Virus record (IMG/VR): IMGVR_UViG_3300017774_005323
Span: 1-57,107 of that record
Length of the DNA stretch: 57,107 nt
Direction: 5' to 3' (one strand)
Source: a virus
Lineage: Duplodnaviria > Caudoviricetes
Shown here: positions 17,503 through 42,107 of the stretch, piece by piece
How positions within the stretch are numbered: the stretch's first letter is position 1
Layout: the number at the start of each line of letters is the position of its first letter
Notes under the pieces: model-generated
What the model was told of the DNA's origin: nothing
Database searches by the model: none
Seen by the model: only the letters and a program-made list of their open reading frames with translations
Made by a program: the position numbers and the translations under genes

Positions 17503-18264
17503 ATGGAAAAGGATTTAATTCCGCAGTTAATTGGCCGCGAAGAAATTGCAACGCTCGCACGGGCCGGGGTAATTCCAGCAAACACGCCGCCTGACATTCT
17601 GAAAGTGTTTGCTATTACGGCAAACCAGCATAAACTTTCACCGTTCAAAAAAGAAATCTATCTGATACCCTACAAGGGCACTTACAGTATCATTGTAGGC
17701 ATTGACGGGATGCGGGCAAAGGCGGCACGTTCGGGCCTGGCAGCAGGGAAAGACGATGCAAAGTTTGACTTGCAAGCCGATGGAACATACCAAACGGCGG
17801 CGCAACTTGTAAACGGCAAACACTACCCAACATCTTGCACGGTTACGGTGTACAAGGTTGTTGGCGGTACACGTTGCCCGTTTACAAAAACCGTTCTTTT
17901 CCGGGAATATTGCCCCGCAAACCCGCCCGCAACAAGCAAATGGCTTACCATGCCGTTTAATATGATCGAAAAGGTTGCAGAAGCACACGCTTTGCGCATG
18001 GCTTTTGCAGATGAAGTTGCCGGGCTTAATATCGAGGAGGAGGAGTACGCTATTCAAGATTTGACAATCGAATCTGTAAAGGGAACTGAGCAGGAAGAAG
18101 CATACCTGCATGAAGACTATGTGAGCGAGATCATTGCTTGCAAAACCAAGTCCGAATTAAAGGCGCTTTACGAGCGCCAAAAACAAGGGTTTGAAAACGG
18201 TACGAAACTGGCAGCGCTTTACTACGATGCTATTGTTAAGCATGGAAAAAGCCTACCTGAATGA
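17503..18264 (+). CDS. recT: RecT/Red-beta ssDNA annealing protein
   Basis: LSPFKKEIYLIPY...VGIDGMRAKA and WLTMP..MIEKVAEAHALRMAF. Confidence 0.88.
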   Translation: MEKDLIPQLIGREEIATLARAGVIPANTPPDILKVFAITANQHKLSPFKKEIYLIPYKGTYSIIVGIDGMRAKAARSGLAAGKDDAKFDLQADGTYQTAAQLVNGKHYPTSCTVTVYKVVGGTRCPFTKTVLFREYCPANPPATSKWLTMPFNMIEKVAEAHALRMAFADEVAGLNIEEEEYAIQDLTIESVKGTEQEEAYLHEDYVSEIIACKTKSELKALYERQKQGFENGTKLAALYYDAIVKHGKSLPE

Positions 18265-19175
18265 GCGAATTTACCGATTTATTTGAAGATGGCTATGTAG
18301 AGCCTAAAGCCGATGAAAAAGCCGCGCTTATTGCGGAATTGCAAAGCGGTAACTACAAACTGTCTTTTTCGAGCCTTAGTGCCTTCGCCGTTTCGCCCGG
18401 TGCGTTTATCGCGTACAAGTTGCAGGAACAAAAAAACACGCTTGCTATGCTTTTGGGTAGCGCCGTGCATTGCCTTATTTTAGAATCTGAAAGGTATGCA
18501 GAACGCTACTTTATTGCGCCCGATGTGAACGGCGCTACAAAAGAAGGAAAAGAGGCATGGAAAAAAATCTATGCAGACTTTGTGTGTGAGCCTGAAATAG
18601 ACTTCAAAATGAAGATTGACGACATTATTAAGGCGGTCAAAGATTCTACCGGGGTGATCGTACTACCTGGGAAAGTTGACAAAGAAGCAAAGTTTCGGGC
18701 GCGTTCCGTTCTTAGAAACAGCGCTTGCCGTTACGTTTTGGACAGCATCACAGAAACCGAGGTCGCGGTAAATTGGGAATTTTGCGGTATCAATTTCCGG
18801 GGCTTCATTGACGCAAAAGGACACGACGGCAAACAGGGCATAATTTTAGACCTTAAAAATATGCCCGATGCAACGCTATACAAGGCGCAAAGCGCTATTT
18901 GGTCGCGTCGTTTGCACTGGCAAGCATTTGGATATGATAAAGCCGTTGGAGGCGGCAACGCTTGCCATATTGCAGCAGTAGACGGCAACGGCGAAACATC
19001 CGTGCATTGCTTTAGCGATAAAAACCTTTGGAGTGCTGAACGGCAACTTGCAAAGTATTGCTACGAATTTAAACGGTGCATTCTCGAAAGCATGTTTGAC
19101 CCTACAATCTGGGATGCTTCGCAGGATTTTTGGCTAAAAACAGATATGAACACGCACGGAATCAACTATTTGTAA
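18261..19175 (+). CDS. RecE/exonuclease VIII-like PD-(D/E)XK nuclease
   Basis: LSFSSL, AMLLGSAVHCLILE, RGFID, ILDLK, LHWQAFGY; coupled to recT. Confidence 0.8.
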   Translation: MSEFTDLFEDGYVEPKADEKAALIAELQSGNYKLSFSSLSAFAVSPGAFIAYKLQEQKNTLAMLLGSAVHCLILESERYAERYFIAPDVNGATKEGKEAWKKIYADFVCEPEIDFKMKIDDIIKAVKDSTGVIVLPGKVDKEAKFRARSVLRNSACRYVLDSITETEVAVNWEFCGINFRGFIDAKGHDGKQGIILDLKNMPDATLYKAQSAIWSRRLHWQAFGYDKAVGGGNACHIAAVDGNGETSVHCFSDKNLWSAERQLAKYCYEFKRCILESMFDPTIWDASQDFWLKTDMNTHGINYL

Positions 19176-29021: not shown

Positions 29022-29354
29022 ATGACAAAGCAACAAACGCACATTTTACAAAGCCGTTGGGCGCTTTTGGCACATGCTACAGTTGATTTTTCGATACCAT
29101 TAAACGGGCCGGGCGCATTTTCGGAAGATCAGATACTTGCACTTCCTTTGGTTGACCAGTATTTTTTAACCGCGTCCGAGGCAATGAGCGCAATTATACA
29201 CCCGAAAGAAAAGGCAAAATTTCGCCGTCATTTGGCGTATGCGCAATGTTTAGGGGAAATGCAGTCAACAGCGCTTTGGGAAAGAATGGCGAAGTTAGAC
29301 GCTGAATTAGATTACCACATGGGCATTCACGCCGCAAAGAAAAACGCGCAATGA
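29022..29354 (+). CDS. Hypothetical protein (possible helicase loader/adaptor)
   Basis: Between initiator and DnaB, coupled to both. Confidence 0.55.
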   Translation: MTKQQTHILQSRWALLAHATVDFSIPLNGPGAFSEDQILALPLVDQYFLTASEAMSAIIHPKEKAKFRRHLAYAQCLGEMQSTALWERMAKLDAELDYHMGIHAAKKNAQ

Positions 29355-30751
29355 GTACAATCGTTACAAACCCGACCTTTGTCGATCCGTTTTTAGATAC
29401 GGAAATATTCAAAAAGTACAAAACAGCCGAAAGCATTATCACTTGCAGGATGGTTGCCGAGCCGTACAACATGCTGACAATTGCAAAGCATTTGAAGCCG
29501 TGCATGTTTTTTGCAGATAACAAGGTAGCTTTGGCTTGCCTGGAACTATACAAACTAAACCAGTCGTACGGCGCTTTCAGTATTGCGCAAAGAGCAGGCA
29601 TGGAAAGTGAGGTTGTTATGCAAATGACAGAACGCCACAGCGAAACGGATTTGATAGAAGCGTTCGAGGTATTTAAAACGATTTGGGGGCAATATGTCGA
29701 AGTGCATAAAGTTGCGCAAAGTGTTATTAAGTGGGCAATGGAAGGCAAAACGAGCGAAGAAATAAAGATACTATCCGACAAAGTGCGCAAAGAAATGGGC
29801 GCTACAATTGCGCAGGAAGACAGCGACGGGAAAAAAGAATTTGAAGCAGCGCTTTTTGCTTCGATTGATGGCAAAGTTATCGACTACCCTGTTAAGCCGC
29901 CAATTGACACTTTACGCCACAAGTTACCGTACTTAGAGCCTGGAGAATACGCTATTGCAGCAGGTCGCACGGGCATGGGAAAATCATTTTTTGGACTAAA
30001 CTGGATTTACGAATGTTGCAAAAATAATATCCCGTCTGTGTACATAAATTTGGAAAACACCCCAAAAGACGTACAAAAGCGGTTGTGGCAAATGGAATGC
30101 GGGGTAAAGTGGAACACGGACTTTTCGAAAGCGAGTGAATCGGAAATGCAGCACTATTTAGATTCGTGGGAGCGGGTAAAGAAGTTCCCTGCAAAGTGCA
30201 TTAATCCGGGACGAAGTCTTCAATCTATCCTTAACTTTTTGCGACAAGAATACTATGAAAGGGGCATACAATTTGCAACGATTGACTACATTCAGTTAAT
30301 GCGAGAAAAGGAAATACGCGGGGGCCGGGTAGATGAAATTGCAGAAATTAGCGCTGCGGTGCGTTCGCTTTGCCTTGAACTAAACATACCGCTTTTGGCG
30401 CTTGCTCAAATAAGCCGGGCGGGCGAAGAAAGTGCCGACAAGCGGCCAAAAATGATACACTTACGCGGTTCGGGCGATTTGGAGCAGGATGCAAGTACGA
30501 TTTTCCTTTTGTACCGCCCTGGATATTACAACATCGTTTGCGATGATAGCGGTCTGCCATACCATGAAAAAGCAGCCGAAATAGAAATCGCAAAAGGTCG
30601 GAATTGCGGGCCGTTTGGCGTTCGATGCAGATTTGATGAAGTGCATGGATTTTACAGCGAAAATGATACTTTTGTGGAGCAAGAAAAAATACAATGGTCG
30701 GGGTATAGCCAAATGGAAAGGCCCGCAAACATTAAAGACATACCATTTTAA
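29351..30751 (+). CDS. dnaB: DnaB-like replicative helicase
   Basis: AGRTGMGKS, IDYIQL, LAQISR, LRGSGDLEQDA, IAKGRN. Confidence 0.95.
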   Translation: MSTIVTNPTFVDPFLDTEIFKKYKTAESIITCRMVAEPYNMLTIAKHLKPCMFFADNKVALACLELYKLNQSYGAFSIAQRAGMESEVVMQMTERHSETDLIEAFEVFKTIWGQYVEVHKVAQSVIKWAMEGKTSEEIKILSDKVRKEMGATIAQEDSDGKKEFEAALFASIDGKVIDYPVKPPIDTLRHKLPYLEPGEYAIAAGRTGMGKSFFGLNWIYECCKNNIPSVYINLENTPKDVQKRLWQMECGVKWNTDFSKASESEMQHYLDSWERVKKFPAKCINPGRSLQSILNFLRQEYYERGIQFATIDYIQLMREKEIRGGRVDEIAEISAAVRSLCLELNIPLLALAQISRAGEESADKRPKMIHLRGSGDLEQDASTIFLLYRPGYYNIVCDDSGLPYHEKAAEIEIAKGRNCGPFGVRCRFDEVHGFYSENDTFVEQEKIQWSGYSQMERPANIKDIPF

Positions 30752-34018: not shown

Positions 34019-34157
34019 TGTTTATCTGATAAAACAAGGGACAATAAACAGCAAACACTTTGCCCGTGCCACATTGGTACGGGCTTTTTTATTGCCAATA
34101 TTTTGAAAATAAACTATCTTTGTAGTGCAAAAAACCAAACTATTTGCCTGTCATTCA

Positions 34158-35420
34158 ATGGGGAAAAGACTATATTTTGTATTAATGCTTGCCTTTTTTG
34201 CTTCATGCGCAAAAGAAGATGCGACGGCACCGCAAGCGATACCAAAAATTTACAACTTTGGAAAGCGCTATGTCGAAGCCGACACGCATAGCGTTTACAG
34301 TTCAAGATTTTACGGGGTAAATACGTTTCCCTGGGTTCCCGTCCAAAAAATCAAAATGTTCCGCTCCTTTCGCGTGTACATTGCAAGCGGTTGGATATGG
34401 AGACCGGGCGGTATTTTTGTACAACCGATGTACCAAGCCGAAACACAGGAAGCAAGCGGATTAGATGTATATTTTGCCAGGTGCAAAAAAGCGGGTATAG
34501 ATGTGCTACCCTGCATTAATCAAACGCCTGAATGGTATAGGCCCGAAAATGAATGGTCAGGATCAAACAACTACCCGCCGATAAAAAAGGGACTTGATCG
34601 CGAAAACCCAACTTCGTATGCTGATTATGCCGAATTTTGGTATCAGTTTGTTTGTAGGTATGGTTCGCAAAAACATCCGGATTCCGTGTTAAGGGTTGAC
34701 ACAACGCCGCGATGGTCGGGCGATATTCCAAATGTCAAAAGATCGGGGCTTAAATTAATTTCACATATCGAGATAGGAAATGAGTTTGACAGATGGTGGG
34801 ACATTGGAACGGAGCGGTATTTAACACCCAAAGAACATGCAGCGCTCTTTTCGGCTGTTATTAAGCGGGTGCGCGAAGCAGACAAAAAAATGAAAGTTGT
34901 AATGGCTGGTTTGACGGGTTTTGATGAAAAGTACCTACTCGAATTTTTGCAGCACTTGCAAGCGCTTGGAAGCGAACTACCCGATGTTGTAAACGTTCAC
35001 CACTATTCGCACTTAGGAAATATTTACGACAAATGGCCCCCGGATTGGTATTTGTCGGGCGCGTGTATGCCAAATGAAGATAACGACTTTGCAATGATCG
35101 ACAGTATTGTATCAATTGCCCACAGTGTAAATAGTCCCGTTTGGGTAACTGAACTTGGGTGTGATTCGCGCCCGCAAAGTTGGATGCATATTGAAGGCCA
35201 AAAATATGGAATGAGCGATGAACAGGCACAAGGAATGCAAATTGTAGAAACTTACAAAGCCTACAAAAAGGCGGGCGTTTCCCGTGCTTTTATGTTTATG
35301 GCAGCCGATGAACCAGGGCAAGGACTTTGGCAATCATGCGGGGTACTGACAAGCCAAAACACGGGGTACCTGAAAAAGCAGTCTTACGAAATTGTAAGGC
35401 AGCACATCTATCCAAAGTAA
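34158..35420 (+). CDS. Lipoprotein glycoside hydrolase, clan GH-A (GH5/GH39-like)
   Basis: Lipobox FFAS|C; EIGNE acid/base, VNVHHY, VWVTELG nucleophile. Confidence 0.8.
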   Translation: MGKRLYFVLMLAFFASCAKEDATAPQAIPKIYNFGKRYVEADTHSVYSSRFYGVNTFPWVPVQKIKMFRSFRVYIASGWIWRPGGIFVQPMYQAETQEASGLDVYFARCKKAGIDVLPCINQTPEWYRPENEWSGSNNYPPIKKGLDRENPTSYADYAEFWYQFVCRYGSQKHPDSVLRVDTTPRWSGDIPNVKRSGLKLISHIEIGNEFDRWWDIGTERYLTPKEHAALFSAVIKRVREADKKMKVVMAGLTGFDEKYLLEFLQHLQALGSELPDVVNVHHYSHLGNIYDKWPPDWYLSGACMPNEDNDFAMIDSIVSIAHSVNSPVWVTELGCDSRPQSWMHIEGQKYGMSDEQAQGMQIVETYKAYKKAGVSRAFMFMAADEPGQGLWQSCGVLTSQNTGYLKKQSYEIVRQHIYPK

Positions 35421-35459: not shown

Positions 35460-37028
35460 ATGAGATTAAAACAAATTTTTGTCATTTTATTTTTGGCCGT
35501 TGCTTTTTCGAGCGATGCCCAAATTTTCAACCCGTACAAACGAGCGCTTAACCGTGCCGAAAAGGAAACGGACGATCTAAAGCAGCAATGGCCAATAGTC
35601 ATTGATCCGATTGAACGAGTGCCGCAAAATGTTTCTAACACGTTCGCCGCATCTTCGCCCGATAATTGGGGCGTTCGCTTGGTTTTGCCCGATTCGATCA
35701 AACAGCGATTACAAGCCGAATGCAAGGGCCGCGTAGTGGTTAAGGTGTACGACACAAGCGGCGGAACGGCACATGCAGCGCTGCAACAAGGACAAATGCC
35801 AGGCAGCAACTACACAGGCAGCGTAAGCCTACCCGACGCGCAGGGGCACGGTACGCATTGCGCCGGGATCATTGCAGCCGATGGGTTTGGCGTACTTGAC
35901 GCGCTAATTGATAACGGCACTATTAAATGGAAACCCGTTAAGATTTTAGGCGATAATGGTAGCGGTTCTTTTGATTGGTTCCGCAACGCGGTGAACGGCG
36001 AAACGAGCGAAGACCGGGCGTTAATTGCGCAAGGTTGGAGCATCGTTTGTAATGGTTCTTTTGGCGGTGGTACTGCCCTGTTGCCAAATGTTGAAAACGC
36101 GCTAAGGGCATCGACTGATTTAGGCGTGATCTACTTAATTGCGGCGGGCAATACGGGCGCAAATGGGGTACAATATCCGGGCAATAGTCCCTATTCAATC
36201 GCGTGTGGTTCGCTCGATGACAATTTGAAGCGTTCGACTTACAGCACAATGGGCGTAGAACTTGCAGTTACGATGCCGGGGCGCAATATCTTATCGACAT
36301 ACCTAAACGGTCAATATGCAACCTTAAGCGGCACAAGCATGGCAACGCCATTTCTAACAGCGTGTGCCGCAATTGCCAAAAGCAAGTATGGTAATTTGAT
36401 ACCGGATTACAAGGCAATGAGAAAGTACCTTTGCTTTGTTGCTACCGATTTGGAAACGCAAGGGCGCGATAATCTAACAGGATGGGGCATTGATTATGTC
36501 CGGGGTATTTTGAATACAAGCCCTACGAAAGTTCCGCCAACATTTAACGACCAGCCAGGGAACGGAAACCCGGCAGACCCAAACCCGAATCCAGTTAAGC
36601 GCGAGTATCGTACAATCGAGTACACAGTTACGGGCGATTGGTCGATCTTTTGGGGGCCGTCTGGTAGTGCGTCATTGGATGCTGCTACAATGAAAACGAC
36701 AAGCAAAAAGGCAAAGGAGGCGGCGTTAAACACCGCCAAAGTAACGTCTGTCAAATTGGAGTATTCCACAAATGACTTTGCCGAAAAATCCAGCGCGGAT
36801 ATAAATGCAAACGTGCGCACTTTTTTTGCCGGGCGTGGTTTTATCCTGCCGAACCCTTGCGATTTTGCCGACGCTGTTTATTGGGCTGCATACTTCTTAG
36901 ATATGACGTTAACTCAGGATAAAAAGCAGACCTTTAGAATTTTGAGCATTGAAGGTAATGACGGCAAAGGCAACAAGGCTGCGTTTAACGCTTCACAGAT
37001 TAAACGATGGCCCGTTGGCAGCAACTAA
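35460..37028 (+). CDS. Secreted S8 subtilisin-like protease
   Basis: Signal SSDA|Q; VYDT, GHGTHCAG, AAGN, SGTSMATP. Confidence 0.92.
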   Translation: MRLKQIFVILFLAVAFSSDAQIFNPYKRALNRAEKETDDLKQQWPIVIDPIERVPQNVSNTFAASSPDNWGVRLVLPDSIKQRLQAECKGRVVVKVYDTSGGTAHAALQQGQMPGSNYTGSVSLPDAQGHGTHCAGIIAADGFGVLDALIDNGTIKWKPVKILGDNGSGSFDWFRNAVNGETSEDRALIAQGWSIVCNGSFGGGTALLPNVENALRASTDLGVIYLIAAGNTGANGVQYPGNSPYSIACGSLDDNLKRSTYSTMGVELAVTMPGRNILSTYLNGQYATLSGTSMATPFLTACAAIAKSKYGNLIPDYKAMRKYLCFVATDLETQGRDNLTGWGIDYVRGILNTSPTKVPPTFNDQPGNGNPADPNPNPVKREYRTIEYTVTGDWSIFWGPSGSASLDAATMKTTSKKAKEAALNTAKVTSVKLEYSTNDFAEKSSADINANVRTFFAGRGFILPNPCDFADAVYWAAYFLDMTLTQDKKQTFRILSIEGNDGKGNKAAFNASQIKRWPVGSN

Positions 37029-37598: not shown

Positions 37599-38072
37599 AT
37601 GAAATTACCCCGTTTTGAACACCTTTACCTAATCTTTGCCCCGTATGCGATGCCATACCGGGCGAAGATTGGTATTAGCATTGCAGCGAAGCAAAGAAAA
37701 GAACAGATAAAAGCGGAACTACGTCCGATGTTTGGGAACGTGACCGTGTACGCCGTAGGATTGCCCGTATTGTACGCTTATCAGATCGAACAGCGCCTAC
37801 ACCGTTTATTTGCCCGCTTTCAGTACAACGGCATACGCCACACAAACGGCGGTAGCGAGTGGTTTTGGTCTGTCAATTGGGTTTCGTGCTTAATCCTGTC
37901 AATTGTGCAATACTTTTGGTTAAGCGAAAGGCTTTTGTTATTGCCGTTTTTTGCTTTGTTGATTCCTTTGCCGATTGACTTTTTATTATTAACTTTGCTT
38001 ATATTCGCTTTTCAGTGGTCGATCATTTTGGGCGGCTTTTATGGAGCGTTTTGGGCGTTAAATTTGTTTTGA
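37599..38072 (+). CDS. T5orf172/GIY-YIG-like domain fused to TM helices
   Basis: AKIGIS...R...IEQRLHRLF...GGSEWF then hydrophobic C-terminus. Confidence 0.65.
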   Translation: MKLPRFEHLYLIFAPYAMPYRAKIGISIAAKQRKEQIKAELRPMFGNVTVYAVGLPVLYAYQIEQRLHRLFARFQYNGIRHTNGGSEWFWSVNWVSCLILSIVQYFWLSERLLLLPFFALLIPLPIDFLLLTLLIFAFQWSIILGGFYGAFWALNLF

Positions 38073-38075
38073 AAA

Positions 38076-38714
38076 ATGGCAAAAATCCTTAAAGTATCTG
38101 ACATGCGCGAATTTGAAGCGCAATTGGCACAAGAAAAAATCACATATGGGCGCATGGTTGAATTGATCGAAGAAAAGGTTTTGCAGGGGTGTATTCCAAA
38201 GGTTGATCTTTTGGCACAACTTGATAAAATGATTGAACAGGCAAAGGAAGCGGCAATGCTATATGAAGATAAAAATATGCCGATCTCTAAGCAGTCTTCC
38301 GGGGCTATGGCAATGGCATATCACTTAGTCAAAAATTGGGTTTTAAATCATATTTTTATGGAAGATAACGAAATCCCAAAAACGCCAAACTACGCTCCAA
38401 AAGACCACATTTCCAAATCCGATCTTTTGGCGCAAATTGAAACTACCAGCCAGGCAATGAAAGAAATTGCGTATAATGAAGACCTTGAACTTAACGAAAG
38501 GCATCAGGCCTATAATAGATTCGCGGCGCTTCAATGGATGAAAGACTGGGTGCCGCATCTTGCAAATGTTGCGAATGCTGAAAACGGGAACTTAGGCCAA
38601 CACGAAAACACGCCAAACCCAATGCAAGCACGTTGCTTAAAATGCAAGCACGAATGGAAAATTGAACTACCAGCGATTTACAAAGAAACGTTTTGCCCGA
38701 ATTGCGGCGAGTAG
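38076..38714 (+). CDS. Hypothetical protein with internal repeat and Zn ribbon
   Basis: Two I.K.DLLAQ...K.WV repeats; CLKC...CPNCG. Confidence 0.6.
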   Translation: MAKILKVSDMREFEAQLAQEKITYGRMVELIEEKVLQGCIPKVDLLAQLDKMIEQAKEAAMLYEDKNMPISKQSSGAMAMAYHLVKNWVLNHIFMEDNEIPKTPNYAPKDHISKSDLLAQIETTSQAMKEIAYNEDLELNERHQAYNRFAALQWMKDWVPHLANVANAENGNLGQHENTPNPMQARCLKCKHEWKIELPAIYKETFCPNCGE

Positions 38715-38846
38715 TGAATTGCGGCGATTAAAACCAAACTTGCAAAAGCCGAAACAATGTGCTACTTTTGTGTTATGAAAATGCGAGTGTGAATTATGTA
38801 TTGCGCTTGCATTTATGTAACACACATGAACAGTGTAAAAACAGAA

Positions 38847-40151
38847 ATGGAAAACGAAATAAAAAAAGTAAGGGTTAAGGATCTGGTTTTAAACCCGATT
38901 AACCCGCGAACGATAAAAGACGAAAAGTTTAAGCAACTAAAAAAGTCTATATCAGAGTTTCCCGAAATGCTCGCAGCGCGGCCCATCGTTGTAAACAGCA
39001 AGATGGAGGTACTAGGCGGCAATATGCGCCTTCGCGCAATGCTTGACCTGGGCATTGAATACGCAAACGTTGTAGTTACCAATTTCACAGACGAGCAGCA
39101 AGCCGAATTTATTATCAAAGACAACCTTTCCTTTGGTGAGTGGGATTGGGATGCCCTGGCGAATGAATGGGACACGGAAAAGTTGCAGGATTGGGGCTTG
39201 GATATTCCATCTTATGCGCAATATGATGAAGAAGAAAAAGAGGCATCAAAAAAAGATGCTACCGACAGTTTACGAGCAAAGTTTATTGTACCTCCGTTTT
39301 CAATTCTTGATACTCGGCAGGGATATTGGCAGGATCGAAAACGAGCATGGCGTGAGATAATTGGTGATAATGGTGAAAGTCGTGAAAACAAATTGTTCAC
39401 CAGCCCGCCGACAAATCCGGTAAGCAAAAAACTACAAGAGTCCGGAGGCGTTTCACTTCTCGACCCGGTTCTATCTGAAACAATTTGTCATTGGTTTGCT
39501 GTACCAAACGGAACGGCATTTGATTGCTTCGCTGGTGATTCTGTTTTTGGATATGTAGCGGCCTATACCGGACAAAAATTTACTGGTATCGAGTTGCGTC
39601 AAGAACAAGCAGATCTAAATGCAGCCCGAGTAGCGGGGATGTCAGCGCAGTATATTTGCGATGATGGGCAAAATGTTTGTAATCATATAGAGCCGGAAAG
39701 CCAAGATTTATTTTTTAGTTGCCCGCCATATTTTGATCTTGAGGTTTACAGCGACCTTGAAAATGATGCAAGCAATCAAGGATCATATCCGGATTTTCTG
39801 CAAATATTAAAAAATGCATTTACCGGCGCGATCAAGTGCTTGAAGCCTAACAGATTTGCTGTTGTTGTTGTTGGCGACATACGGGATAAAAATGGGTTTT
39901 ACCGTTGTTTCCCCGATGATATTAAAGCCATTTTTAAGGAGCAGGGTGTTCTTTTTTACAGTGATCTTATACTCATCGAGGTTATTGGAACGGGTGCATT
40001 GCGGGCCTCTAAACAAATGGGAAATCGAAAGCCTGTAAAGTGCCACCAAAACGTATTGGTATTTTACAAAGGCGATCCAACAAAGATCAAAAGCATCTAT
40101 CCAAAAATTGAAATACCTGAAACAGATGGAAGCCAGGATGTGGAACTTTAG
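38847..40151 (+). CDS. ParB-like N-domain fused to an amino-MTase-like domain (start may be 38826)
   Basis: NPINPRTI...GGNMRLRA...IIKDN; FDCFAGDS (motif I), GIELR, SCPPY (motif IV). Confidence 0.85.
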   Translation: MENEIKKVRVKDLVLNPINPRTIKDEKFKQLKKSISEFPEMLAARPIVVNSKMEVLGGNMRLRAMLDLGIEYANVVVTNFTDEQQAEFIIKDNLSFGEWDWDALANEWDTEKLQDWGLDIPSYAQYDEEEKEASKKDATDSLRAKFIVPPFSILDTRQGYWQDRKRAWREIIGDNGESRENKLFTSPPTNPVSKKLQESGGVSLLDPVLSETICHWFAVPNGTAFDCFAGDSVFGYVAAYTGQKFTGIELRQEQADLNAARVAGMSAQYICDDGQNVCNHIEPESQDLFFSCPPYFDLEVYSDLENDASNQGSYPDFLQILKNAFTGAIKCLKPNRFAVVVVGDIRDKNGFYRCFPDDIKAIFKEQGVLFYSDLILIEVIGTGALRASKQMGNRKPVKCHQNVLVFYKGDPTKIKSIYPKIEIPETDGSQDVEL

Positions 40152-40434
40152 TGCTTGGGTGTCAATTACAGAGCCTGCGGATATTTTGGCGTATTATGAA
40201 AAAGCGCTTAATGATTCCGGATTTTGCATAGTAGGGAAGGTGGAGCATCACTTTGATCCGCAAGGGTACACGGTGTTAATATTGCTTAGCGAGAGCCATT
40301 TTGCGGCGCATACATTTCCCGAACATGGCACGACATACATTGAGTTGAGCAGTTGTGTTCCGGGGCCGTTTAATCGGTTCCTTGCAATGACAAATGCGGA
40401 AACGAAAAGATCCGAAAATATCCCGTTAAATTAG
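40126..40434 (+). CDS. speD: S-adenosylmethionine decarboxylase proenzyme
   Basis: HHFDPQGYT...LLSE|SHFAAHTFPE...SSC pyruvoyl-enzyme motif. Confidence 0.9.
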   Translation: MEARMWNFSAWVSITEPADILAYYEKALNDSGFCIVGKVEHHFDPQGYTVLILLSESHFAAHTFPEHGTTYIELSSCVPGPFNRFLAMTNAETKRSENIPLN

Positions 40435-40449
40435 AATTAATAAAGAAAT

Positions 40450-40818
40450 ATGGCACGAAAAGGAGGTACACCCGAAAATTTAAGGCCCGCGCAAAAAGGC
40501 GAGGTGCGCAATCCGAACGGCAGGCCGCGCAAGTTGCCGAACCTTGACACGCTCCTTGCTGAAATTATGGGCGAAGAAAAAGAAGGCATAAGCGCCGCCG
40601 ATGCTATCCTGCGCAAACTTCGCCAAATGGCAACACAGGGCAATTTGCGGGCTGCTGAAATACTTTTAGATCGTGCCTACGGCAAGGCAAAACAGCCGGA
40701 CGCAAAAGCCGAATCAGTAACAGTAAATATATCTAACTACACACCTCCAAAGGCATTAAGTGCCGGGGATGTAGACGATATACTGAAAATTGTAAAAATA
40801 GAGAACAAAAGTGAGTGA
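40450..40818 (+). CDS. terS: Terminase small subunit (putative)
   Basis: ENLRP.QKGEVRNPNGRP...AEILLDRAYGK; overlaps terL. Confidence 0.8.
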   Translation: MARKGGTPENLRPAQKGEVRNPNGRPRKLPNLDTLLAEIMGEEKEGISAADAILRKLRQMATQGNLRAAEILLDRAYGKAKQPDAKAESVTVNISNYTPPKALSAGDVDDILKIVKIENKSE

Positions 40819-42107
40819 GTGCAAATATTCGGTTTTTACCAGCATCGAGGGCGGCGCATTTAACGCCAGGGCAATTGGCGTATATTGGCAACATAGGCGG
40901 TTTTGTCCCTATTGTCGCCAATGACGTATTTATGCCACACTACAACAGGCCCGAAAGAATACAAATATTGTATGGTGGAAGTTCGGCAGGCAAAAGCGAC
41001 TGGAAAGCTACGGAATTACTGATTAAGGTTTTAACCGAACCGTATTGCCGCGTCCTATTTGTCCGAAAAGACCATGTTACCGTTCGGCATTCGCAGTTTC
41101 AACTGTTCAAAGATCAAATAGCGCGGTATAATCTGCAAAAGTATTTCACCGTCCTTGAAGCGCCCATGATCATACGCTGCCATAATGGTAACGTAATGCT
41201 ATCCGGGGGGCTTGACGATGTGGACAAGTTGAAGTCTATTGCAGATATTACAGATATTTGGTTAGAGGAGCCGCTTGACAAACGCGGGAGCATTACAGCC
41301 GATGACTTTTTGGAGTTGGATAGGCGCGTAAGAACGGTAAAGGCACCAAACCACATTCACTTTACCTTTAATCCCATTTCGCGGGACAGTTGGATACACG
41401 ATTACTTTTTAAAGGCAACGGATTACGACCCGTTTGTTTTGAAAACAACGTACTTAGATAATCACTTTAGCCCTGAAAGTCAGCATTTGACTTTTGAGCG
41501 CTTAAGGGTTAGGAACTATCAGCAATACTTGGTCTATGCCCTGGGCGAATGGGGAACGCTAACAGAAGGGCTTGTTTTCAAAGATTACAGCATCGTTCCA
41601 GATATGCCAGCCGATGCGCAAAAGCAGGGGTATGGCATGGACTTTGGTTTTTATCCCGATCCTACGTCGCTTGTGCATTGCGGTATTTATGAAGGAAAAT
41701 TGTATGTTGATGAGGTAATGTATGATTACAACATGACTTCGCATATAAGGGCAAAAACGATGAAAGATCGGTTAGTTTCTAAAAATTTGCGTATTATTGC
41801 GGATCGAAACCCGGAAGCGATCAAAGAAATAAGCGGCTTAGGGTTCCCAAAAATCGAAGCAGCAGACAAAGGGCCTGGGAGTATAAAGCATGGTTTGGAC
41901 TTGTTAGGAAACTACCCTATTTGCATAACAGCGCGGTCTGTGAACTTGAAAAAGGAACTTGATAACTATTCCTGGGTAATGGATAAGCGAACTGGAAAGC
42001 CAACAGGTGAACCGATAGACGAATGGAACCATGCGATTGACGCGATCCGGTATTGGGCAAGCAAACACATAACGTCACAAAAGCCGTTTAAGCGGCAAAT
42101 CAGATAA
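40815..42107 (+). CDS. terL: Terminase large subunit (PBSX/SPP1-like)
   Basis: YGGSSAGKS, IWLEE, TFNP, GMDFGF..DPT, NHAIDAIRY. Confidence 0.95.
   Translation: MSANIRFLPASRAAHLTPGQLAYIGNIGGFVPIVANDVFMPHYNRPERIQILYGGSSAGKSDWKATELLIKVLTEPYCRVLFVRKDHVTVRHSQFQLFKDQIARYNLQKYFTVLEAPMIIRCHNGNVMLSGGLDDVDKLKSIADITDIWLEEPLDKRGSITADDFLELDRRVRTVKAPNHIHFTFNPISRDSWIHDYFLKATDYDPFVLKTTYLDNHFSPESQHLTFERLRVRNYQQYLVYALGEWGTLTEGLVFKDYSIVPDMPADAQKQGYGMDFGFYPDPTSLVHCGIYEGKLYVDEVMYDYNMTSHIRAKTMKDRLVSKNLRIIADRNPEAIKEISGLGFPKIEAADKGPGSIKHGLDLLGNYPICITARSVNLKKELDNYSWVMDKRTGKPTGEPIDEWNHAIDAIRYWASKHITSQKPFKRQIR

Follow-up and report, generated by a model that had tools for sequence, protein, structure and literature searches.

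The virus record IMGVR_UViG_3300017774_005323 of IMG/VR (Duplodnaviria; Caudoviricetes) is complete, carries direct terminal repeats and was analysed over its whole length of 57,107 nt, referred to here as the window. On its + strand lie two overlapping genes, namely: a fusion of a ParB N-terminal domain to an amino-methyltransferase (MTase; 38847..40151, 434 aa) and a class 1b S-adenosylmethionine decarboxylase (AdoMetDC or SpeD; 40126..40434, 102 aa). SpeD makes decarboxylated S-adenosylmethionine (dcSAM; S-adenosylmethionine itself is written SAM or AdoMet), an aminopropyl donor. On balance, we favour the view that the two genes form a module, with SpeD as the source of dcSAM for a DNA-modifying enzyme whose cofactor pocket has been retuned. 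The evidence is a signature that, as judged from the alignment, consists of an acidic residue at the x2 position of motif I (Asp231), the loss of an Arg/Lys at x2+3 (here Phe234) and Leu205 in motif X. The original prediction, made from the sequence of the window, had proposed coupling to dcSAM through the Asp. This interpretation is partly supported, and the comparison of homologues points to added support in the replacement of Arg by Phe at x2+3, in natural revertants and in MetK-MTase-SpeD triples.

Homologous loci (designated by L numbers) were collected from IMG/VR by MTase, by SpeD and by SpeD-less relative, from one genome per prokaryote species, and from four phage records. An MTase-profile match was present in 315 loci, of which 48 were removed (42 for an incomplete or ParB-only match, 5 for having <450 nt on the downstream side and 1 for a motif I gap). 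The 267 scorable loci, many from shared contigs, reduce to 110 representatives at 80% identity. When each form is named by its residues at x2 and x2+3, D..F has an adjacent SpeD in 63 representatives and no SpeD in 4, and D..M has an adjacent SpeD in 1 and lacks it in 0. SpeD is adjacent to 0 representatives of the other forms, namely: G..R (31 without SpeD), D..K (motif I FAGDTQKG; 7), G..F (3) and E..K (GGEATKG; 1). Scored as acidic x2 plus non-basic x2+3, the signature occurs together with SpeD in 64 representatives and alone in 4; SpeD alone is found in 0, and 42 have neither. Co-occurrence of the motif I Asp with an adjacent speD had been set beforehand as a test. All 64 SpeD-linked representatives have an acidic x2, the residue being Asp231 in 64/64, and the pattern extends to separate losses of SpeD. 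The contrary possibility, that the Asp is equally common without speD, does not hold, with 42 SpeD-less representatives lacking the signature. No hidden SpeD was found in the 46 SpeD-less representatives or in 62 loci by a sensitive profile search (E up to 1) together with a motif regular expression.

Five distant cultured-phage homologues (Funu2, HCTV-2, FA88, prophiT37-1 and Mae-JY30) lack SpeD and have Gly/Glu at x2 and Arg/Lys at x2+3, so that G..R is taken as the ancestral state. In the genome scan, D..F with SpeD and G..R are found 18 vs. 9 times in Bacteroidota, 8 vs. 14 in Bacillota and 5 vs. 3 in Pseudomonadota. Since both types occur in the same phyla, the contrast between motif and SpeD is no proxy for host phylum.

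A tree was built without the motif I columns (IQ-TREE quick, LG+G4, with support from the Shimodaira-Hasegawa-like approximate likelihood ratio test only). It separates, with a support of 100, a 32-tip SpeD-less clade (31 G..R plus the E..K form) from a 78-tip clade that is ancestrally D..F with SpeD. In the 78-tip clade, 7 losses of SpeD are counted. Motif I changed on 4 of these loss branches: D to G in the L058/L162 clade and in L285, and VF to QK in a 6-tip clade and in L076, the VF to QK changes coming with L205F. It is unchanged in 3 losses (L006; L280; L277 with L202). No change of the D or the F is found on the SpeD-keeping branches of this clade. SpeD-less branches make up 16.4% of its branch length, and the probability that all 4 motif changes fall there is P=7e-4. 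FAGDTQKG with L205F is thus seen at two separate, well-supported places in the tree, namely L076 and the clade of L083, L195, L197, L260, L261 and L264, and on the sequences its twofold origin may lie in convergence or in a recombined motif X-I segment. As read from this tree, the evidence for coupled evolution of motif I and SpeD is good but not overwhelming.

The positions that toggle with SpeD have a known bearing on cofactor choice. In M1.HpyAVI, whose motif is FMGSG-T, S198 (x2), T200 and H168 contact the AdoMet carboxyl (PMC5173035). In spermidine synthase, an invariant Asp in the middle of the motif I glycine loop leaves the SAM carboxyl no room, and its carboxylate is close enough to the aminopropyl group of dcAdoMet for a hydrogen bond (PMC1282579, PMC4356361). 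Junker et al. converted the spermidine synthase of Datura into a SAM-dependent putrescine N-methyltransferase (PMT) with D103I (x2), V106T (x2+3) and Q79T, and in their model V106T hydrogen-bonds the SAM carboxyl (PMC3725402). In the synthase, the amine held by the Asp puts C3 of the aminopropyl group at the acceptor, while the PMT changes rotate the cofactor so that its methyl faces the acceptor (PMC3725402). The two positions that toggle with SpeD are thus x2 and x2+3, the same two as in the dcSAM/SAM switch of spermidine synthase. Their summed net charge is -1 only in the SpeD-linked D..F form and is 0 or +1 in G..F, D..K, E..K and G..R; judged by sequence, the -1 charge matches a ligand without a carboxylate.

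The nearest SpeD-less relatives, the D..K forms, differ consistently from the SpeD-linked enzymes at 7 positions only (205, 218, 222, 233, 234, 238 and 267). The seven fall within motif X, motif I or the adjoining helix and strands; motifs IV-VIII, and with them the half of the enzyme for catalysis and target binding, contain none. The direction of change argues against an MTase that simply puts up with the product of SpeD, since loss of an Arg and gain of an Asp is the wrong direction for excluding dcSAM. At a further position, 261 (39627-39629), 63 of the 64 SpeD-linked representatives carry Arg and the remaining one Lys; G..R forms have Asn/Gln there, and 6/7 D..K forms Val/Ile. We considered Arg261 as a relocated carboxylate binder and set it aside: in the AlphaFold2 (AF2) model, residue 261 is at the distal end of the helix that follows strand 2, and L076 keeps Arg261 despite its QK change. 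Residue 261 co-varies with cofactor type from a site modelled far from the pocket.

The SpeD of the window is a real, diverged and C-terminally short member of class 1b. Pfam AdoMet_dc (PF02675) matches it with 53.5 bits (cut-off 25; 52.6 bits in the search of the whole record) and phrog_27309 with 7.3e-34. Residues E56-S57-H58, H62-T63-x-P65-E66 and C77 align with SESHLTIHTWPE...C of 1TLU; the Glu56-Ser57 self-processing site is encoded at 40291-40296 and Cys77 at 40354-40356, both on the + strand. The Glu-Ser site, the HT(F/W)PE segment and the Cys are what we take to be catalytic elements of class 1b AdoMetDC. The Glu-Ser site, the His, Thr-x-Pro-Glu and the Cys are invariant in 62/62 non-redundant MTase-linked SpeDs. 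The gene had been called a complete SpeD, and this stands as far as its catalytic residues are concerned. In length it does not: the protein has 102 aa as opposed to 130 aa in the AdoMetDC of Thermotoga maritima, the family profile covers only residues 22-87 of 1TLU, and the score against the NCBIfam equivalog TIGR03330 is 44 bits, below its cut-off of 75.65. The longest speD frame opens at 40108, and the ATG at 40126 is the start that aligns with the homologues.

The window SpeD is 47-48.5% identical to that of Croceibacter phage P2559S. The P2559S homologue restored spermidine in an E. coli ΔspeD strain and is thus a bona fide AdoMetDC, unlike other phage homologues, which have turned into arginine or ornithine decarboxylases (PMC9992855). 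By homology to this enzyme, we infer that the window SpeD decarboxylates SAM. That paper does not mention the MTase link, the word ‘methyltransferase’ occurring 0 times in it (PMC9992855). Compared with the phage AdoMetDC genes described there, this subfamily, of which P2559S carries the validated member, is shorter (89-112 aa in most), and 78-79 of its best 80 genes overlap or abut a ParB-MTase.

The original prediction had described a ParB-MTase fusion with the motifs FDCFAGDSVFG and SCPPY whose gene overlaps that of SpeD by 26 nt, and Pfam, PHROG and the coordinates agree with it. The overlap spans 40126..40151 on the + strand and includes the MTase stop codon (TAG, 40149-40151); an in-frame ATG further upstream, at 38796, is a possible alternative MTase start. 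ParB_N (PF02195; a ParB/Srx, CTPase-fold domain) matches residues 4-94 (38856..39128, +; 30.8 bits, cut-off 26.3). N6_N4_Mtase (PF01555) matches residues 287-419 with 37.8 bits (cut-off 26.7), over profile positions 2-118 of 221 only. PHROG 498 ‘DNA methyltransferase’ matches with 3.9e-122, and in NCBIfam neither the MTase nor SpeD is named above cut-off. Along the protein, FDCFAGDSVFG occupies residues 225-235 and FFSCPPY residues 289-295. The motifs, all on the + strand, are the motif X region SLLDPV (residues 203-208, 39453..39470), with Leu205 in place of the Phe found in all SpeD-less G..R and D..K forms, motif I FAGDSVFG (residues 228-235, 39528..39551), with Asp231 at 39537-39539 and Phe234 at 39546-39548, and motif IV FSCPPY (residues 290-295, 39714..39731).

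The AF2 model of the MTase (mean predicted local distance difference test 88.4, predicted template modelling score 0.73) has a canonical class I Rossmann core. Its elements are a strand at 223-226, the motif I loop, a helix at 233-240, a strand at 244-249 ending at Glu249, a strand at 267-271 followed by Asp272/Asp273, and a strand at 286-291 directly followed by CPPY. Foldseek against the PDB returns generic class I MTases only, the best being the Trm11 m2G10 tRNA MTase (E 1.7e-09, TM 0.33-0.43); at the level of models, these matches confirm the class I fold but do not place residues against a ligand. The sole PDB sequence relative under E 0.001 is the beta-class methylase TTHA0409 (2ZIE; E 2.4e-05), which aligns as two swapped pieces: its motif IV-VI block with residues ~273-347 and its C-terminal motif X-I block with residues ~209-263 of the MTase. 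Since the pieces align in swapped order, the MTase is regarded as a circular permutant of the beta class. The earlier picture of a plain FxGxG enzyme with one odd residue is therefore replaced by that of a circularly permuted, beta-class-like enzyme, as the sequences indicate, with CPPY in both clades.

With the beta-class N6-adenine/N4-cytosine MTases (PF01555; TTHA0409, M1.HpyAVI), the window enzyme shares the Pfam match, the class I Rossmann fold and the alignment of both the motif X-I block (LSETICHWF...FDCFAGDS) and the motif IV-VI block with TTHA0409. It differs in its order X-I-II-III-IV, motif I (228-235) preceding motif IV (290-295) where the beta class has IV ... X-I, and in having FAGDS and CPPY instead of the canonical FxGxG with a small x2 and (D/N/S)PP(Y/F) (PMC7544214, PMC5173035), with Ser for the third Gly of FxGxG. 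The ParB-N fusion is found in other phage enzymes, and a survey of ParB-CTPases describes ParB-N6N4-MTase fusions as a phage-enriched type, with no mention of a decarboxylase (PMC12704722). SAM-type relatives have Gly/Ser/Thr at x2 and Arg/Lys/Thr at x2+3, where the window enzyme has Asp and Phe, and its cofactor is probably not SAM. A second PP motif, VPPFS (residues 148-152, 39288..39302, +), is conserved 5′ of motif X and of the catalytic core, with P150 invariant across 106 sequences; together with the swapped TTHA0409 alignment, it points to an origin from a beta-class MTase by duplication or permutation. Complex prediction with MTase residues 140-434 and SpeD gave ipSAE values of 0.00 and 0.00, which are uninformative either way.

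The linkage of the two genes was counted in the best 80 SpeD-subfamily loci in IMG/VR. A full MTase lies directly 5′ of SpeD in 78 of them, with a partial match in 1 (L146) and none in 1 (L144), and the arrangement is therefore not due to chance. The genes overlap in 33/36 homologous pairs for which an ATG start of SpeD can be assigned. Among cultured phages, the nearest relatives of the MTase are those of Stutzerimonas phage ZRG1 (49% identity) and P2559S (43%); both have the MTase-SpeD arrangement, and the P2559S pair overlaps too. When neighbours were clustered, SpeD was the sole family exclusive to SpeD-linked MTases (63/64 vs. 0/46). Each other flanking family, probably terminases and portals (unannotated), occurs in ≤24/64, and the clustering gave no third conserved partner such as a 5′-methylthioadenosine (MTA) nucleosidase. 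The pair thus travels as a unit; it is found in records carrying the labels of 9 phyla, and these phyla have G..R forms as well.

MetK, the SAM synthetase, which the window phage does not encode, abuts the MTase in 3/52 scorable SpeD-linked representatives (order MetK-MTase-SpeD), in 4/6 D..K and in 0/28 G..R forms. In one subclade, in phage or prophage, MetK, recognised by all three of its Pfam domains (N, M and C), directly adjoins the ParB-MTase on its 5′ side (e.g. L083:2967-3989); it is also beside the MTase in L260, L261, L264, L018, L061, L087, L239, L243, L244, L251 and L252. The subclade has either SpeD 3′ of the MTase, as a triple, or FAGDTQKG forms without SpeD, and the lineage that lost SpeD and reverted the pocket kept MetK. 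The neighbours of the MTase are thus repeatedly cofactor-supply enzymes. In L256, a genome contig of Candidatus Gracilibacteria, the MTase frame is short under table 11 (profile 4-163) and a SpeD match follows; the short frame probably reflects the alternative genetic code of this lineage.

The proposed mechanism treats the two overlapping genes as what would be one functional module. SpeD would process itself to a pyruvoyl enzyme and decarboxylate SAM to dcSAM. The MTase, with a pocket apparently altered at the methionine end of the cofactor (Asp231 at x2, Phe234 for an ancestral Arg/Lys, Leu205 for Phe), would take dcSAM rather than SAM as its ligand, dcSAM having no carboxylate and a net charge more positive by one. 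Late in infection, phage DNA would then be modified with dcSAM at an exocyclic amino group of A or C. The transferred group could be an aminopropyl, giving N6-aminopropyl-A or N4-aminopropyl-C plus MTA, or a methyl, giving N6-methyladenine (m6A) or N4-methylcytosine (m4C), and the sequence leaves the two about equally likely. The benefit is probably protection from host nucleases, which is speculation.

By analogy with spermidine synthase and PMT, the SpeD-linked form could be an aminopropyltransferase and the revertants methyltransferases; an enzyme that keeps motif IV and passes on the methyl of dcSAM would fit just as well. That the MTase is a DNA aminopropyltransferase, moving the 3-aminopropyl group of dcSAM to N6 of A or N4 of C with release of MTA, is put forward tentatively. 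The natural revertants suggest, at the level of sequence, that aminopropyl transfer and SAM-dependent methylation may be interconvertible by one or two pocket substitutions.

A number of observations weigh against the use of dcSAM by the MTase. The case for it, for every family member, is drawn from genes and their comparison, and residues were mapped to the cofactor by motif alignment and literature rather than by coordinates. Motif IV is the same in both clades, so that nothing marks a changed transferred group. As the split between G..R and D..F is one deep event, most of the raw 64/0 contrast is a single observation. The identical QK of L076 and of the 6-tip D..K clade may be one event spread by recombination; with the QK events counted once, k=3 and P is ~0.004 (hand arithmetic). 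An independent-pairs test (treekit) gave, for Asp and Phe each, 3 pairs changing the same way, 0 opposite and 5 unchanged of 8 (p=0.25), although this test cannot reach significance with so few pairs. The signature is found without SpeD in 4 of 68 representatives (L006/L181, L280, L202/L203 and L277). No SpeD was found elsewhere on the records of L006/L181, L202/L203 and L277, which are 10-65% complete fragments or a 1.6-Mb metagenome-assembled genome, and the L280 genome has a host-type AdoMet_dc elsewhere. Finally, x2 is acidic without SpeD in the 8 representatives whose x2+3 is Lys (7 FAGDTQKG and 1 GGEATKG). The Asp alone is thus neither sufficient nor diagnostic, and what stands of its earlier role as a cofactor switch is its placement at a carboxylate-contact and dcSAM position. 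The points that speak for a polyamine role, taken up next, weigh in the same direction.

SpeD could be an ordinary polyamine auxiliary gene that works through host aminopropyltransferases, next to an ordinary SAM-dependent m6A/m4C enzyme, the synteny being inherited and the motif I pattern lineage noise. AdoMetDC is the commonest phage polyamine gene, and the P2559S enzyme can support spermidine synthesis in E. coli (PMC9992855), which makes a polyamine role possible. SpeDs without any MTase also exist. In L144, a 250-kb viral contig, a lone SpeD of the same subfamily (L144:4007-4339) has no MTase within 4 kb and sits between a TacA-like gene and a CHAP-domain gene, near thymidylate synthase. 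SpeD is likewise found without an MTase in Moorella phage MTATph1 and Bacillus phage vB_BcoS-136. The gene of the latter, annotated ‘speH’ (L317:2668-3741), encodes 357 aa with AdoMet_dc at residues 86-192 only, which leaves ~85 residues at the N-terminus and ~165 at the C-terminus without a Pfam match.

The host genes give a mixed picture and do not decide between the readings. The spermidine synthase family (PF01564) is over cut-off in 3/5 module-carrying host genomes, with no match over cut-off in those of Phocaeicola coprocola and Spirosoma spitsbergense, and the sole AdoMet_dc match in S. spitsbergense and Anaerophaga thermohalophila is the prophage's own. A polyamine role is thus possible in some hosts and unlikely in others. 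The window itself encodes no spermidine synthase, as had been predicted: PF01564 has no match anywhere in the 57,107-nt record. The polyamine explanation also draws on the main motif contrast being one deep split, but all 4 motif I changes inside the SpeD clade coincide with SpeD loss, and the changed positions are those of carboxylate contact and dcSAM specificity. In addition, the pair is retained, mostly overlapping, amid varying flanking genes, the phage and at least one host are without spermidine synthase, and SAM should be bound less readily when the Asp at x2 has no basic partner. Overall, we regard this explanation as unlikely.

SpeD could instead serve counter-defence, draining SAM and/or building up dcSAM as a competitive MTase inhibitor against restriction or BREX-type systems, with the MTase still using SAM. 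Phage SAM lyases that disable SAM-dependent defences are indeed mentioned in the literature (PMC12783734). However, an MTase amid high dcSAM and low SAM should strengthen its carboxylate recognition, and instead the Arg was lost and an Asp gained; the MetK-MTase-SpeD triples raise the SAM supply rather than drain it. If SAM is drained, use of dcSAM by the MTase would be the natural solution, and the explanation merges with the one we favour. As a separate account, it seems quite improbable.

A last possibility is that the MTase-like enzyme transfers the 3-amino-3-carboxypropyl (acp) group of SAM to DNA and that the SpeD-like enzyme decarboxylates acp on the DNA. Transfer of acp to RNA by Rossmann-fold enzymes is known, and the gene pairing would fit. 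On the other hand, the P2559S SpeD acts on free SAM, and a pocket that lost a basic residue and gained an Asp would bind the SAM carboxylate worse, so that we give this scheme very little credence.

As a use of dcSAM, the favoured module can be compared with two known systems. Spermidine synthase and PMT (PF01564) share with the window MTase the Rossmann fold and the motif I x2 Asp, which specifies dcSAM there. In that family, x2 and x2+3 switch between dcSAM with aminopropyl transfer and SAM with methyl transfer (PMC1282579, PMC3725402), and here both toggle with SpeD. The window MTase differs in having no PF01564 match, no N-terminal beta domain and no gatekeeper loop, and a DNA base, not a diamine, would presumably be its acceptor.

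In design, the nearest precedent is CmoA-CmoX of Synechococcus phage S-B43, in which CmoX, a phage DNA-MTase homologue, is a Cx-SAM-dependent DNA cytosine-C5 carboxymethyltransferase using a SAM derivative made by a co-encoded enzyme (PMC12783734). In the CmoX pocket, Arg350 is matched to the extra carboxyl of Cx-SAM, and ParB-domain proteins are associated (PMC12783734). As with CmoA/CmoX, gene pairing and pocket co-variation are observed here, and cofactor use is what the genes of the window suggest. CmoX differs in belonging to the C5 class with a Cys nucleophile, and its cofactor enzyme is a carboxylase that acts on the methyl group. Here the amino-acid end of the cofactor would be altered, so that, unlike in CmoX, the cofactor by itself does not determine which group is transferred. 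Full-text searches, subscription papers excepted, turned up no report connecting SpeD or dcSAM with a DNA methyltransferase or with DNA modification.

The module had been placed directly upstream of terS/terL. The large terminase subunit is confirmed (40815..42107, +; Terminase_3, 4.1e-39, and Terminase_3C), while the gene in between (40450..40818, +; DUF5681 by Pfam) is a candidate small terminase subunit named by position only. Anti-restriction coupled to packaging had been raised as a possible purpose of the module and stays speculative; a position 5′ of the terminase is common to SpeD-less MTase relatives as well. On the 5′ side of the module are a glycosyl-hydrolase-like gene (34125-35420), a secreted S8 subtilase with a signal peptide (35460-37028), a T5orf172-domain protein whose C-terminal half is hydrophobic (37599-38072), and a 212-aa protein (38076-38714) with a C-terminal CxxC...CxxC zinc-ribbon-like motif and no family match. 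Further away, the regions 17503-19175 and 29351-30751 encode a RecT + PDDEXK (DUF3799) recombination pair and a DnaB-type helicase. The + strand carries nearly all long open reading frames of the window. Among assembled contigs of public sequencing runs (Logan), the full window is contained in a single freshwater metagenome, possibly its source, seven more runs contain small parts, and no RNA run was listed.

If the favoured module is real, dcSAM would gain a second biological role beyond polyamine synthesis, as a cofactor of DNA modification, and phage SpeDs of this subfamily would have been mis-filed as polyamine auxiliary genes. The module would also be the second natural case, after Cx-SAM/CmoX, of a phage SAM-tailoring enzyme joined to a retuned methyltransferase homologue. 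Should the transferred group be aminopropyl, it would represent a new cationic DNA hypermodification and the first use of dcSAM outside polyamine synthesis, and such a cationic base may bear on how restriction is evaded, on the signals seen in sequencing and on the labelling of DNA. The natural revertants (D to G, VF to QK) offer a ready map of the cofactor-specificity switch, and the question is directly testable, as the cultured phages P2559S of Croceibacter and ZRG1 of Stutzerimonas carry the module.

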